Shown here: piece by piece, positions 1 through 4,765 of the stretch
Layout of the letters: each line of letters starts with the position of its first letter
Numbering within the stretch: the first letter of the stretch is position 1
Assembly (NCBI GenBank): GCA_963663225.1
Contig: OY760142.1
Span: 2,432,001 to 2,496,000, forward strand
Reading direction: 5' to 3'
Length of the DNA stretch: 64,000 nucleotides
From: Nitrospirota bacterium
Lineage (GTDB): Bacteria; Nitrospirota; UBA9217
Program-made: the position numbers and the translations under genes
The notes under the pieces: model-generated
Told to the model about the DNA's origin: nothing
The model's input: the letters and a program-made list of their open reading frames with translations, nothing else
Databases searched by the model: none

Positions 1-103
1 ATCGGAAATTAAAAGTTAAAAGCAGAACAAAGGCTATAGCCTTGTTGTCTCAGCAATAAGGCTTGTAAAAACAAGAATTGACGGAAATAAGACTTTTGAT
101 CGA

Positions 104-131
104 TTGACTTTTAATTTCTTATTGCTATTCT
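104..131 (+). promoter_or_regulatory. sigma70-type promoter for the putative ncRNA
   Basis: TTGACT (104-109), 16-nt spacer, extended -10 TGcTATTCT (123-131); predicted start ~138, just before the 142-152 closing-stem arm. Confidence 0.65.
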
Positions 132-141
132 TTAAACATAA

Positions 142-319
142 GCTGTGCTGTTAGGAGGCACGTTACGTGCCGAGGCGGCAATTCATCTGCGGCATATACT
201 CCATCCCCCCCTTAACAAAAGTATAGGCCGTATGTGAGGCCATCAACGGGTGGCGCCGGAGTGCAGTTGCTGTGGACCTATCCACAGCAAGATGAGACTG
301 CATATTGAAACAGCACAGC
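142..319 (+). ncRNA. putative structured non-coding RNA of unknown family (~180 nt)
   Basis: Perfect 11-bp 5'/3' closing stem GCTGTGCTGTT(142-152)/AACAGCACAGC(309-319); hairpins 157-171 and 267-290; long-range pairings 175-188/290-301 and 197-202/258-263; upstream promoter and downstream terminator-like stem. Confidence 0.6.
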
Positions 320-323
320 ATCT

Positions 324-388
324 AAGGCGTCTCGATAATACATCAGGAAAAGATTTAAGAAGCAGCCATCGGGACGCCTTGTCTTTTT
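324..388 (+). terminator. terminator-like stem-loop
   Basis: 13-bp stem AAGGCGTCTCGAT(324-336)/ATCGGGACGCCTT(368-380) with one U-G pair favouring the + strand, followed by GTCTTTTT; the 31-nt loop is unusually large. Confidence 0.5.
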
Positions 389-454
389 CATGGTATTTCC
401 CTGCCAAATTCTATATTTCTTGACGCCTCGTCATAATATCTGTATCATGACCCT

Positions 455-1696
455 ATGATATATATACTCTTTTTGCTTTTTATCGCAGTTGTCGGCACCG
501 GGTACTGGCTAAAGTATCTGAATTTGTCTTATCTTAAAATACACGGTCATACGGTTCCGCCGGAATTTGAAGGCAAAATAGATCCTGATGTTCTTCGCAG
601 AATTTCCGATTATATTGCTGAAAATAACAGAATAGGACTAATCGAGTCACTTGCGGATAATTTTTTGCTCGCGCTTTTTCTCTTTGGCGGATTGCTGGAA
701 ATCTATGACCAATGGATTGCTTCCTGCGCCGGATCATTTATAGGAGCAGGGGTGCTCTTTGTCCTGATTCTTCTGGCTGTCGGTACGGTGTTGGACATAC
801 CGTTCAGTCTTTACAGCAATTTCAAGATTGAAAAACGCTATGGATTCAACACCATGACCATGCGCATCTGGCTGACCGACTTTATCAAATCGGCAATTAT
901 TTCTTTTGTGCTGGGGGCTTTTGTCGTCATGGTCATCCTCAGCATTATTCAAGGGAGTCCGGTTCTGTGGTGGCTTTGGGTCTGGCTTTTTTTGCTGCTG
1001 TTCGGTGTTTTCATGATGTATGTTTCTCCTTACATAATAGAGCCGCTTTTTTTCAAATTTGAACCTATTAAAAAAGAAGGTTTGGAGGAAAAAATACGGA
1101 CTCTCGCGGAACGGGCAGGGATTAAAGTCAGCAAAATCTTTCAGGTGGATGCCTCCCGCAGAAGCAGGCACTCAAACGCATACTTTACCGGTATCGGGCA
1201 GGTCAAACGGATTGTTCTGTTCGACACCCTGATTGAACAGATGACCGAAGAAGAAATCCTTGCAGTTCTGGCGCATGAAATGGGCCACTGGAAAAAACGA
1301 CACGTGATCAAACGCTTAATCCAGACCGAAGCAATTGCCTTTTGCAGTCTGGTGGCGGCATTTTATCTTCTTGCATGGGAGCAGTTGCCGGCGCTGTTCA
1401 ATCTCGCTGATGCTTCATTTTATGTCCGCGTAATTATTGTGGGCTTTCTGGGGTTTTTGGTTATGTTTCCTCTTACTCCGCTGTTTTCTTATTTATCACG
1501 GCGCGACGAGCAGGAGGCGGACCGATTTGCGGCTGAATTGACGGGAAATCCGAAAGCCATGGCCTCGGCGTTGGTTCAACTTTCGAAGGAAAATCTTTCC
1601 AATTTGCACCCACATCCCCTGTATGCACAGTTCTATTACTCTCACCCTCCGGTGGTGGAAAGAATCAGAAAATTGAGGGCGCTGAGCGATAGGTAA
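455..1696 (+). CDS. M48 family (Ste24/CAAX prenyl protease-like) zinc metallopeptidase
   Basis: Multiple TM segments, NAYFTG, HEMGH zinc motif, E-x-EAD, YSHPP. Confidence 0.92.
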   Translation: MIYILFLLFIAVVGTGYWLKYLNLSYLKIHGHTVPPEFEGKIDPDVLRRISDYIAENNRIGLIESLADNFLLALFLFGGLLEIYDQWIASCAGSFIGAGVLFVLILLAVGTVLDIPFSLYSNFKIEKRYGFNTMTMRIWLTDFIKSAIISFVLGAFVVMVILSIIQGSPVLWWLWVWLFLLLFGVFMMYVSPYIIEPLFFKFEPIKKEGLEEKIRTLAERAGIKVSKIFQVDASRRSRHSNAYFTGIGQVKRIVLFDTLIEQMTEEEILAVLAHEMGHWKKRHVIKRLIQTEAIAFCSLVAAFYLLAWEQLPALFNLADASFYVRVIIVGFLGFLVMFPLTPLFSYLSRRDEQEADRFAAELTGNPKAMASALVQLSKENLSNLHPHPLYAQFYYSHPPVVERIRKLRALSDR

Positions 1697-1810
1697 TGCA
1701 CCTGTTCTGCAGCAGATGCGTTGATCAAGACAAATCTCCAGTATACTATGTTGTTCCCCAAAAACAGATTTTCGGGTTGACCGACTCTGGTCTCTGTGCT
1801 ATTTTTACTC

Positions 1811-3097
1811 ATGGTGTTAAACGAGAGCGAAATCAGCCGTCTCAACCAGAAGATCCTGCGCCTCTCCGCGCTTATTGACGTAAACGGAATAATCAGCTCA
1901 TCACTCAATCTGGAGGAAATCCTTGAAAATGTAATGACCATCTCCAAACAGGTGATGAACGCCGATGCGTCGAGTCTCATGCTGATAGACGAAAAAACGA
2001 ACGAACTGGTGTACGAAGTTGCTCTCGGCACTGTGGGGCAGAAACTAAAACAGGAGCACAGGCTCAAGATGGGGCAGGGGATCGCCGGCAGCGTGGCACA
2101 GGAGGGGAAACCGCTTTTATTGGAAGATGTTTATACCCACCCCCAGTTCTACCGCGGACATGATGAAGCAACAGGCTACCGTACCAAATCCATGATTACC
2201 GTTCCTCTCAAGGTCAGGGAGCGCATAACAGGCGTTGCGCAGGTGATCAACCGTCTTGATAATGAACCGTTCGATTCAGATGATCTTGAGCTCTTCATTG
2301 CCTTGTGCAGTTTGGCTTCTATTGCCATTGACAACGCAAAAATGCACATTGCTCTGATGGAAAAACAGCGGCTTATCAAAGACATGGAATTCGCTCGTAC
2401 CGTGCAGGAAAGTTTTCTTCCGCAGCAGCCACCTGAAATTCCCCACTATCAATTCAGCTCCCATTATACGCCTGCTCAGGAAGTAAGCGGCGATTTCTAC
2501 GATTTTATCCAGCTCGATGCGAACCGTATGGGAATCATGATCGGCGATGTCTCCGGAAAGGGTGTGCCTGCCGCACTGTATATGGCAAAGCTGGGAAGTG
2601 ATCTGCGCACGCTTCTTCTCACGGAAAAATCGTCCGCCTCAGCCCTCGAAAAATTAAATGATCTCCTGGTGGAGCGGAGCCGACGCGGTATGTTCGCCAC
2701 ACTTCTCTACCTGGAACTTGATATCGCACAGAAAGCCCTGACAATATTGAACGCCGGGCATCTGCCTCCGGTCATTAAAAGAGCCGAGGGACCGGCTGAG
2801 AAACTTCCGCGCTCAAGCAGCGCTCCTCTCGGTATCCTGCCCGGCATGATACTTTTGCCTGAAACGGTGACGTTGACCTGCGGAGACAGCATCGTTTTGT
2901 ATACAGACGGCATTACCGAAGCGATGAATGCACAAAAAGAGCTGTTCGGATATGAACGATTCATTGCGCTTATTCAGCGCAGCGCTGCTGCTCCGGATGT
3001 ATTGCAGGCTGAGATTACCAGAAAGGTAAAGCAATTTACCGGTCTTAGTCCTCAGCACGATGACATAACTCTGGTTTGCTTCGGAGTGCTTTCATGA
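1811..3097 (+). CDS. GAF + PP2C (SpoIIE/RsbU-type) Ser/Thr phosphatase
   Basis: GAF domain (GQGIAG...TKSMITVPL...QVIN), then GDFYD, GDVSGKG, NAGH, YTDGITE, DDIT; start placed at ATG 1811 (ORF track GTG 1796). Confidence 0.92.
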   Translation: MVLNESEISRLNQKILRLSALIDVNGIISSSLNLEEILENVMTISKQVMNADASSLMLIDEKTNELVYEVALGTVGQKLKQEHRLKMGQGIAGSVAQEGKPLLLEDVYTHPQFYRGHDEATGYRTKSMITVPLKVRERITGVAQVINRLDNEPFDSDDLELFIALCSLASIAIDNAKMHIALMEKQRLIKDMEFARTVQESFLPQQPPEIPHYQFSSHYTPAQEVSGDFYDFIQLDANRMGIMIGDVSGKGVPAALYMAKLGSDLRTLLLTEKSSASALEKLNDLLVERSRRGMFATLLYLELDIAQKALTILNAGHLPPVIKRAEGPAEKLPRSSSAPLGILPGMILLPETVTLTCGDSIVLYTDGITEAMNAQKELFGYERFIALIQRSAAAPDVLQAEITRKVKQFTGLSPQHDDITLVCFGVLS

Positions 3098-3513
3098 CAG
3101 AGATTGTTACCCTGATTGTGCCCAGCCATCCCAAATACCTGCGTATCATACGAAGCGCGCTGCAACCGTTCCTCGAAGACGCCGGTTTCCCTGAAACAGA
3201 AGCCCGGAAAATTATCCTTGCGGTGGATGAGGCCTGTTCCAATATCATAAAATATGCCTATGAAGGTGATTATACAAAAACGATCTCCTTGGTGCTCACC
3301 AACAAGCGGGAAAAGCTTATAATTGAATTGAAAGATTCCGGCAAAAAACCGGATATATCGAAAATTGCACCGCGCAAGCTTGATGACATTCGGCCGGGAG
3401 GACTGGGAACGCATTTTATAGCGTCAGTCTTTGATACCGTCGAATACGATACGGACAAGGAATCGGGAACGGTATTGACGTTGACAAAATTGAATCGGGA
3501 ACGTTGTTCGTGA
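3094..3513 (+). CDS. RsbW/SpoIIAB-like anti-sigma-factor Ser kinase (HATPase_c_2)
   Basis: N-box AVDEACSNIIKYAY, DSG, GGLG; ATGA overlap with the phosphatase stop codon. Confidence 0.9.
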   Translation: MTEIVTLIVPSHPKYLRIIRSALQPFLEDAGFPETEARKIILAVDEACSNIIKYAYEGDYTKTISLVLTNKREKLIIELKDSGKKPDISKIAPRKLDDIRPGGLGTHFIASVFDTVEYDTDKESGTVLTLTKLNRERCS

Positions 3514-3522
3514 GGTCGGCTG

Positions 3523-3870
3523 ATGAACCTGGAGATTACTACCGAAAAAAACGGTCCGTTTTTTCTGCTGCAGCTGAGCGGCGAGGTGGACATGAACACC
3601 TCCACGAAGGTAAGAGCCGTCATGCAGGAGACGTTTCAGCGGATTACTGCCGATATAAAGACGCTGCTCATTGACTTGTCACACGTGCGGTACATGGACA
3701 GCTCCGGCATAGCAACACTCATTGAGATTATGCAAAACTGCCGGAAAAAAAACATACGGCTCAGACTCTGTGCGTTAAGCCCTTCGGTAAAAGACGTGTT
3801 TGAACTCGCGCGGCTTGGAAGCGTGTTTGAAATTTATCAGACGGTTGATGAAGCAATGGCGGGACTCTAA
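3523..3870 (+). CDS. STAS domain protein (RsbV/SpoIIAA-like, possible MlaB analogue)
   Basis: LSGEVD, IDLSHVRYMDSSGIATL with the phosphoacceptor Ser retained, VFELARL. Confidence 0.9.
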   Translation: MNLEITTEKNGPFFLLQLSGEVDMNTSTKVRAVMQETFQRITADIKTLLIDLSHVRYMDSSGIATLIEIMQNCRKKNIRLRLCALSPSVKDVFELARLGSVFEIYQTVDEAMAGL

Positions 3871-3943: not shown

Positions 3944-4765
3944 TTGCTGACGCACTTTTCTGTTCCGGAGTTATTTGTGAAGCACATATTCGGCTACATC
4001 GGCAGAACATTTATAACTTTTTTGCAGGACCTTTCAGGTTTATGGTATCTGTTTCGCGAGACCATCCTCCAGTCGGTCCTTGTTCTGAAGGACCGGAAAA
4101 AACGGAAACAGGCCAACCTGCTTGCTCAGGTGGACCAGATTGGAACACAGTCGCTGGCGCTTATTCTCATGGTGGCTGTCCTTCTGGGCATTGCGTTGAC
4201 GGTGCTTATTTCATTCCAACTGAAGGAAATTGCCGGTTACAGCTATATCCCGGGTTTTGTGGCGATTGCGGTGTTTCGCGAGGTGGGACCGCTTATGACG
4301 GCGGTAATCATAGCCGGAAAAGTAGGCGCCGCTTTCACCGCACGAATCGGGACCATGAAGGTTTCAGACGAGATATTAGCGCTTGAAACCATGGCGATCA
4401 ATCCCGTCCGCTTTCTCGTTGTTCAGCGGTTCATAGCACTGCTGCTTTCTCTTCCGGCGCTTACGCTCATCGCGAATTTTAGCGCAGTGTTCGGCGGTTT
4501 TCTGTTTGGTTCAATGAGACTGGGCATCAGACCGGATACGTACGTACGGGCGACGCTGGACGTGCTGATTTTCAAGGACCTGTATTCCGGGATGATCAAG
4601 GCCGCGGTTTTTGCCGTGGTCATCGTCATGGTGGGATGCTATCGGGGGCTGGTCGTGGAAGGCGGAGCTGAAGATGTCGGAAAAGCGACAATGCTTTCAG
4701 TAGTGTCTTCCATGCTGATGATTATCATGATCGACACGGTCATGACAACCGCATTTTATGGATAA
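3944..4765 (+). CDS. mlaE: MlaE family MCE-system ABC permease
   Basis: REVGPLMTAVIIAGKVGAAFTARIGTMKVSDEILAL, GGAEDVGKAT. Confidence 0.9.
   Translation: MLTHFSVPELFVKHIFGYIGRTFITFLQDLSGLWYLFRETILQSVLVLKDRKKRKQANLLAQVDQIGTQSLALILMVAVLLGIALTVLISFQLKEIAGYSYIPGFVAIAVFREVGPLMTAVIIAGKVGAAFTARIGTMKVSDEILALETMAINPVRFLVVQRFIALLLSLPALTLIANFSAVFGGFLFGSMRLGIRPDTYVRATLDVLIFKDLYSGMIKAAVFAVVIVMVGCYRGLVVEGGAEDVGKATMLSVVSSMLMIIMIDTVMTTAFYG

Follow-up and report, generated by a model that had tools for sequence, protein, structure and literature searches.

Small RNAs (sRNAs) that carry C-rich motifs are known from several bacterial groups. In Xanthomonas, the three apical C-rich loops of sX13 repress mRNAs having G-rich motifs near their start codons, some of these motifs being placed at the ribosome-binding site, and the action is independent of Hfq; the molecule is described as three simple stem-loops that follow an unstructured 5′ region, with C-rich motifs of the type CCCC/CCCCC (PMC3771888). 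The 6C sRNA of Actinobacteria binds several mRNAs directly through its C-rich loops, and G-C pairing of single-stranded regions is reported to be sufficient without a chaperone (PMC6486639). In Firmicutes, RoxS/RsaE and LhrC are reported to have C-rich single-stranded motifs that are aimed at ribosome-binding sites, and a two-component system mediates the induction of LhrC (PMC5419742, PMC4132741). RepG (HPnc5490) of Helicobacter pylori is also mentioned in the sX13 article (PMC3771888).

The locus described here is located in a window of 64,000 nt from a Nitrospirota genome (the window is the whole stretch of DNA that was analysed, and all positions refer to it). Positions ~138–388 of its forward strand very probably form an independent gene for a structured RNA. 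The reading that we favour, and hold tentatively at close to even chance, is that of an independent structured sRNA gene of ~250 nt, confined to one Nitrospirota class and probably acting in trans through a C-rich loop. In kind it belongs with the bacterial small RNAs that carry a C-rich loop, although its scaffold is unusually large and conserved.

With sX13, which is far shorter, the present RNA shares C-rich motifs in apical loops, trans action being demonstrated for sX13 and proposed here. The two differ in the ~250 nt of the present RNA, in its junction closed by an 11-bp stem and in its one dominant C-tract; they have no sequence or Rfam relationship and come from Gammaproteobacteria and Nitrospirota, respectively. 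The likeness to 6C lies in the C-rich loop motif, for which mRNA binding is established in 6C and proposed in the present RNA; 6C is small, whereas the present RNA has no Rfam match and belongs to a genome that encodes Hfq. RoxS/RsaE and LhrC have no sequence relationship to the present RNA, which is also much larger. The induction of LhrC has a parallel in the LuxR-type regulator gene adjacent to the present RNA, the link between this regulator and the RNA consisting of gene adjacency only. In RepG, the C/U-rich loop of the terminator pairs with an mRNA leader, at a homopolymeric G tract; the present genome likewise has G8–G11 runs at ribosome-binding positions, but the present C-tract is in an internal domain. 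The Acido-1 and Chlorobi-1 motifs are lineage-specific orphan structured RNAs obtained by comparative genomics. RNAs of this type resemble the present one in being intergenic, in having their own promoter and terminator, in their occurrence in one lineage and in their support by covariation; they differ from it in lineage and fold, and none of the 4227 models of Rfam 15 matches the present RNA.

The sequence-only reading, made from the letters of the window before any database search, had proposed a non-coding RNA outside the known families, and the comparisons agree with an independent, non-coding RNA gene without an Rfam 15 family. The Rfam 15 scan of positions 1–3000 of the window, with E up to 10, returned five weak matches, none overlapping 104–388, and the scan of 20 homologue loci, with E up to 1, returned two matches, neither of them within the RNA. 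Rfam 15 includes 6S, 6C, RsaE and sX13. The genes for 6S, SRP RNA, RNase P RNA and tmRNA, to which the RNA could not be matched from its sequence, were each located elsewhere in the genome: 6S at G000:C1:1011616-1011797 (RF00013, 101.1 bits), outside the window and with no match at the RNA locus, and SRP RNA, RNase P RNA and tmRNA above their cut-offs with 68.9, 280.5 and 199.5 bits, respectively. A MITE or another repeat had been named as the alternative, with many genomic copies expected; a single match was found in the 3.26-Mb genome, and the RNA is therefore not a MITE. A CsrA sponge of the CsrB/RsmZ type was also excluded, since no CsrA (PF02599) was found in this 99% complete genome; the predicted transcript of 251 nt has five GGA motifs, which is about chance level, and these are not conserved in loops. 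Among the papers listed, searches of the literature on Nitrospirota small RNAs and on the discovery of RNA motifs surfaced none on the present RNA, nor, in searches not designed as a survey, a characterised regulatory RNA from Nitrospirota; the terms ‘Nitrospir’ and ‘C-rich’ are absent from the main text of a 2026 preprint about the space of prokaryotic non-coding sequences. The RNA family is real and well delimited, and neither Rfam nor the literature searched gave a match to it.

The limits of the gene are given by its promoter and terminator. A sigma-70 promoter had been recognised at 104–131, and the consensus scan recovered it as TTGACT-16-TATTCT with a TG extension, that is, a −35 hexamer TTGACT at 104–109 and an extended −10 element (TG, one base and TATTCT) at 123–131. 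This promoter is retained in all 42 homologous loci having upstream sequence. TTGACN and TAnnnT are both present in 42/42 of them and the TG extension in 40/42, and the spacer is 16 nt long in 39/42 and 17 nt in 3/42. Just upstream of the −35 hexamer, at 83–103, is a conserved A/T-rich block, UP-element-like or a putative binding site for a regulator; in most of the 42 loci, a block of the AAAATAcrACTTT type keeps a constant distance to the hexamer. A second genomic site for this element was sought and rejected, the sole other match, with two mismatches, being inside a coding region. Across the 42 loci, the end of the −10 element is 2–6 nt ahead of the start of the covariance model, which sets the predicted transcript start near 138, four bases before the closing stem P1.

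At the other end, the stem 324–336/368–380 is followed by GTCTTTTT at 381–388, in which the U-run of the intrinsic terminator, read from the sequence and then counted in the homologues, occupies 382–388. At least six T within the 10 nt after the terminator stem are present in at least 33 of 43 homologues, a minimum count because several of the remaining homologues were mis-parsed by the script. The predicted transcript then extends over 138–388 of the forward strand (~251 nt), with its 5′ end placed by the −10 position and its 3′ end by the U-run. A self-contained structured RNA had been correctly recognised, but its length, first put at ~180 nt, is better given as ~250 nt, composed of a 178-nt core and the conserved terminator hairpin. 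We infer that the RNA gene itself is transcribed. A search of sequencing runs found no RNA run that contains the locus. Three runs labelled RNA-Seq gave contigs that did not distinguish genes from intergenic DNA, and one of them was identical to a DNA run of the same sample; because of this DNA-like behaviour, they carry no information on transcription of the locus. A small protein-coding gene was also considered and rejected: the homologues share no conserved ORF, their longest closed ORF varying from 1 to 60 aa and shifting in position, and among 445 indels 90 are multiples of three and 355 are not.

The genes around the RNA separate it from its neighbours. In the present genome, the RNA is preceded by maf and then a LuxR-family HTH regulator, and is followed by an M48 peptidase and then a GAF-SpoIIE phosphatase; the N-terminal half of the regulator gave no hit to a Pfam receiver domain. 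Upstream, maf and/or the LuxR-type regulator are encoded on the same strand in 42/42 loci having upstream sequence, with the regulator in 38/42 and maf alone in 4/42. Only ~45 nt separate the stop codon of the regulator from the −35 hexamer, and this interval contains no terminator, so that read-through from upstream may add to the synthesis of the RNA. Such an arrangement would also suit a 3′-end element of the maf/regulator operon, in which the RNA would arise mainly from read-through and processing and the hairpin would be the operon terminator. We consider this origin improbable, because a complete sigma-70 promoter stands at a fixed distance from P1 in 42/42 loci, which argues for a primary transcript. 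The 3′-UTR route and a promoter-driven transcript are not mutually exclusive, and both may coexist.

Downstream, the M48 peptidase gene follows on the same strand in 31/43 loci; the other 12/43 have a XerD-like recombinase, a GAF-SpoIIE phosphatase, a RuBisCO-like protein or a gene on the opposite strand. The frequent presence of the peptidase, together with a riboswitch-like layout in which P1 closes a junction and the intrinsic terminator comes 4–8 nt on, could be explained by a cis-acting leader, either a riboswitch or an attenuator, with the terminator as its means of controlling the peptidase. Synteny largely refutes this explanation, which is very improbable. In the 12 loci with other downstream genes these are of at least four unrelated kinds, and a variable downstream gene makes the RNA independent of the peptidase rather than its leader. 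The peptidase, moreover, keeps a conserved promoter of its own between the terminator and its ATG (TTGACG-17-TATGAT, ending 6–7 nt ahead of the ATG; in the present genome TTGACG-17-TATCAT at 420–448), and its mRNA is predicted to be leaderless. Some genomes have the regulator and the peptidase adjacent with the RNA missing between them, as in G003, G030, G066 and G036, which keep both genes side by side. In addition, the sole set of competing pairings that was tested, that of the sequence-only reading, is not conserved. The same reading had already doubted a leader of the protease on account of the separate promoter of this gene, and the variation of the downstream gene gives a second reason for it.

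The stems, the C7 tract, the promoter and the terminator-like stem recognised by eye were all found in their expected places. For positions 138–392 of the forward strand, the minimum-free-energy fold is the same as the centroid, with −99.87 kcal/mol and a z-score of −5.04 against 200 dinucleotide shuffles, none of which (0/200) is as stable. The reverse strand folds equally well (z −5.97), so that the strand is not assignable from folding energy alone. In this fold, the closing stem P1 is a perfect stem of 11 bp, whose 5′ strand at 142–152 (GCTGTGCTGTT) is the exact reverse complement of its 3′ strand at 309–319, and which is supported by covariation as well. P1 encloses a multi-helix junction that displays a near-invariant C-rich apical loop and a second conserved loop, CCAnCA.

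Within the junction, P2 is a hairpin of 6 bp at 157–171 whose sequence and length differ between genera and which is missing in some of them. The P3 domain (176–258) is formed by a stem, 176–179/255–258, around the C-loop hairpin and P3d, and many homologues have this nested arrangement in their constrained folds as well. Its C-loop hairpin at 188–232, supported by fold and covariation, is composed of P3b (188–193/227–232) and P3c (195–200/220–225) and ends in the apical loop 201–219, in which the C7 tract at 205–211 is the proposed seed. P3d, at 239–254, is a hairpin with a conserved loop of the CCAnCA type; judged from reading the alignments, its stem sequence depends on the clade and its loop motif is retained. 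P4, at 261–303, is a variable arm that contains the perfect 10-bp hairpin 267–276/281–290 (267–290 as a whole) with the flanks TGCAGT (262–267) and ACTGCA (297–302); its sequence is not conserved, and a hairpin is predicted at its site in most homologues. The terminator hairpin is at 323–381, with the stem GGCGUCYCGAU/AUCGRGRCGCC nearly invariant among the homologues; in the present genome the stem has 13 bp, including one U-G pair, and its loop varies from 4 to ~70 nt across homologues.

The constrained folds of the 43 homologues were distributed among 14 shape classes, the two commonest with 9/43 each, and present a shared plan: P1 around two to four hairpins, then a variable arm and a separate terminator hairpin. 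The C-tract is on one hairpin, and many of the sequences have the CCAnCA-type loop on another; GAGA and CCAnCA are the conserved junction nucleotides. A multi-helix scaffold of ~250 nt with a sequence-invariant terminal hairpin exceeds the needs of a simple base-pairing sRNA.

Covariation was evaluated in an alignment of 42 sequences, all 43 homologues except L144, truncated at the end of its contig, with the consensus structure derived from unconstrained pair probabilities. The proportion of paired cells was 88.0%, against 81.4% in shuffles (0/500 reach it) and 34–49% with the partners slid; the covariation score was 0.258, against 0.166 in shuffles (0/500 reach it) and 0.06–0.08 with the partners slid. 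Double-sided changes occur in 21 pairs. In P1, they are present in 12/15 pairs, for example GC:15/AU:14, UA:26/GC:9 and CG:30/UA:9. P3b, which reads GCGGC/GCCGC in the present sequence, has 87% of its cells paired, and one of its pairs appears as GC:28, AU:4 and CG:3. The terminator stem, with 92.6% of cells paired, is almost invariant in sequence: five of its pairs are G-C or C-G in 40–42 of the 42 sequences, and its variation is restricted to U-A, U-G and C-G (UA:27/UG:15; CG:21/UG:13/UA:8). P2, P3, P3d and P4 are without a column-wise covariation result because these arms shift register in the MAFFT alignment. Conservation and covariation in the 42 homologues make the structure more than a product of chance.

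The same pairs also define the strand. The U-G pairs of the terminator, and of P1 (one pair is CG:31/UG:10), correspond to A-C mismatches on the opposite strand and, together with the promoter and the U-run, assign the RNA to the forward strand, as the sequence-only reading had proposed from the G-U pairs within its competing pairings.

A two-state switch had also been suggested, on the basis of a competing set of pairings, 175–188/290–301, 189–194/268–273 and 197–202/258–263. The complementarity of these segments does exist in the present single sequence, but it is not conserved: across the 42 homologues, 42.4% of the cells of this competing set are paired, compared with 43.2% after shuffling (381/500 shuffles reach the observed value) and 33–41% with the partners slid, in an alignment that is unreliable for their 3′ partners, which sit in the variable P4 arm. 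When the competing fold is enforced, the energy is −85.87 instead of −99.87 kcal/mol, a cost of 14.0 kcal/mol, and the pair probabilities are at most 0.0002 for the competing pairs, compared with 0.88–1.0 for those of P1 and P3b. The competing pairs would, in addition, disrupt the conserved P3b and P3c. As these pairings are neither conserved nor energetically favoured, a switch that operates through them is extremely improbable.

The distribution of the RNA was examined at increasing distance. A BLAST-level nucleotide search in 61 relatives gave two clear homologues only, with 94% and 76% identity. A first covariance model, built from three sequences, identified full-length matches in many genera, in each case ahead of the M48 peptidase gene, and a second one, built from 20 sequences and run over whole genomes, gave a full-length copy in 41/64 species genomes, 16/19 genera and 23/32 high-quality genomes. 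Each carrier genome has one full-length match, with the exception of G082, which has two copies and 6% contamination. Searches at order and class level added no genome to the 64 of the family search, since the class consists of a single order with a single family; this family is thus a whole class-level lineage. No copy was found in 23/64 genomes of the class; in four non-carriers, G003, G030, G066 and G036, a scan of the syntenic gap with the filters off found no remnant.

A phylum-wide sample of 123 genomes, taken from 21 other families, gave no full-length match, and 4/123 had fragments of 19–22 bits and 56–147 nt, no better than background in G000 and G004. A collection-wide scan for the terminator stem motif found at least 120 stretches in unrelated GC-rich genomes; 80 of these loci were compared with the model and none has a full-length match, the best of the 80 having 35.7 bits over 147 nt. 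The RNA family is restricted, among the genomes searched, to one Nitrospirota class.

The pyrimidine tract with the C-run is the best-conserved unpaired element of the RNA. It reads CUUCUUCCCCCCC in many genera and UCCUCCCCCC in one clade, where it resembles the anti-Shine-Dalgarno sequence. A C-run of at least five is present in 38/43 sequences, of at least six in 35/43 and of at least seven in 26/43, and one column of the tract is C in 42/42. In its six core columns there are 18 non-C residues, namely 15 U, 2 A and 1 G; the substitutions are thus mostly from C to U, with which pairing to G is still possible. In the constrained folds, the C-run is at least 80% unpaired in 22/43 sequences and fully unpaired in 13/43. 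The RNA is thereby predicted to have what defines the class of C-rich-loop sRNAs, a conserved, largely single-stranded C-rich motif in a hairpin loop, and a conserved C-tract in an apical loop fits the working principle of sX13 and 6C.

A trans-acting sRNA whose C-rich apical loop pairs with G-rich ribosome-binding sites is thus the most likely mode of action among those considered, although we place it somewhat below even chance. The C-rich loop would act as a mimic of the anti-Shine-Dalgarno sequence and pair with G-rich ribosome-binding regions of mRNAs, and this pairing would lower the translation of the targets. Hfq may assist, held by the terminator hairpin and the U-tail. The genome encodes Hfq (PF17209 at 109.6 bits, plus two further matches), while ProQ and CsrA were not found in it; a conserved intrinsic terminator with a U-run and an Hfq gene in the same genome are the sequence features of an Hfq-dependent sRNA.

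Potential targets with G-run ribosome-binding sites do exist, since G6-N4-9-ATG is 2.5–3.5 times commoner than the control in genomes of the class; in the present genome, G8–G11 runs occupy the ribosome-binding positions of several predicted envelope proteins. The excess of G-run sites does not follow the RNA: the median ratio is 2.47 in the 41 carriers and 2.58 in the 23 non-carriers (Mann-Whitney p 0.55). Signal peptides were predicted, with a crude predictor, in 11/28 genes with G6 sites versus 560/2577 (p 0.036), a weak signal that is gone at G5. A FadL-like gene was tried as a conserved target and rejected, because the G-run ahead of it is limited to genus g1, where it occurs in 4/4 carriers and 0/2 non-carriers; other genera have it in 0/9 carriers and 0/5 non-carriers. 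The G-run comparison of carriers and non-carriers found no conserved mRNA target.

This last result also bears on a different explanation, that of a protein-binding or scaffold RNA, either a component of a ribonucleoprotein (RNP) or a protein sponge, in which the hairpin, the junction and the pyrimidine loops would be recognition sites for proteins. It is possible, although on the unlikely side. Besides the conserved mRNA target that was not found, it would account for a terminator stem near-invariant on both arms in 42 sequences, which is unusual for a mere terminator, for the ~250-nt size and the multi-helix junction with its conserved nucleotides GAGA and CCAnCA, and for the strong invariant promoter with its UP-like element, as in housekeeping RNAs. 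On the other hand, the neighbouring genes (maf, the LuxR-type regulator and variable downstream genes) include no linked candidate for a partner, and the genome, as far as it was searched, has neither CsrA nor ProQ. An RNA not found in 23/64 genomes is no universal housekeeping component, and hairpins with the same stem motif are ordinary GC-rich terminators in unrelated phyla, so that the present one may be simply a good terminator.

A more specific form of this explanation is unlikely in our judgement: the RNA would serve a lineage-specific ribonucleoprotein as subunit or scaffold, or else would be a structured RNA that has its own activity. Three features go beyond what target pairing needs, namely the covariation of the 11-bp P1, the conservation of nucleotides in the junction, and a 12-bp terminal hairpin whose sequence is invariant across 16 genera. 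In such an RNP, the C-tract would be a site of protein contact or of tertiary contact.

With a clear promoter, a terminator, a fold, 43 homologues and a C-tract as its obvious functional element, the locus is a well-delimited RNA gene. The covariance model is directly usable to annotate metagenome-assembled genomes of this Nitrospirota class. If the scaffold explanation is true, the RNA would represent a new bacterial RNP. If the proposed targeting by the C-rich loop is true, a principle known from Xanthomonas, Actinobacteria, Firmicutes and Helicobacter would extend to a deep-branching anaerobic lineage.

The proposed targets of the RNA are mRNAs with G-rich ribosome-binding sites, and in the source genome homopolymeric runs of eight to eleven G occupy the ribosome-binding position of several genes for predicted secreted or outer-membrane proteins, one of them FadL-like (example sites, outside the window, at C1:2231348, C1:631572-632777 and C1:1049122-1049691). 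In each of the class's 64 genomes, the motif G6-N4-9-ATG occurs about 2.5 times as often as its control. In the genus g1, the upstream regions of the FadL-like gene in loci L301 and L302 were compared with those in L298-L300 and L304; the four RNA-carrying genomes present G6-G8 at the ribosome-binding site, whereas the two genomes without the RNA have an ordinary GGAGG-type site. This match between G run and RNA may reflect shared ancestry, with no functional link.

Three Hfq-domain matches were found in the source genome, also outside the window (C1:9438-9820 and C1:67341-67526). One is a canonical Hfq gene (109.6 bits); the other two are adjoining domains separated by 36 nt (66.6 and 56.9 bits), which may represent a tandem or duplicated Hfq. 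Regarding expression, in the comparison of runs X21 and X20, a run labelled as metagenomic RNA-Seq and a DNA run from the same sample gave identical contig tables, so that label is unreliable as evidence of expression.

Upstream of the RNA, a LuxR-type regulator gene (positions 894-1559 of locus L001, ending at window position 59) encodes a C-terminal LuxR/GerE helix-turn-helix domain (E 3.4e-20). Its N-terminal half is receiver-like in appearance, yet Pfam Response_reg does not match it at a threshold of E 0.001, and it may thus be a degenerate (pseudo-)receiver.

On the other side, the RNA is followed in the window by the M48 peptidase gene (455-1696). In one genus a gene for a RuBisCO-like protein stands in its place (L126 of genome G020, 1872-3023; PF00016, E 5e-27); the peptidase gene of G020 is on a different contig. 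Directly downstream of the peptidase gene there is a partner-switching module (window 1796-3870), composed of a GAF-SpoIIE (PP2C) phosphatase assigned by Pfam (1796-3097) and ORFs of 145 aa (3076-3513) and 115 aa (3523-3870), which, judged by eye, resemble an anti-sigma kinase and a STAS anti-anti-sigma factor, respectively; a 273-aa membrane ORF comes next (3944-4765).

The peptidase gene has its own promoter, TTGACG-17-TATCAT, within window 420-457, which ends 6 nt before the ATG, and it lacks a Shine-Dalgarno sequence. The layout (TTGACG, 17 nt, a TATGAT-like hexamer, 6-7 nt and ATG) is common to most loci of other genera, and the M48 peptidase mRNA is therefore predicted to be leaderless.
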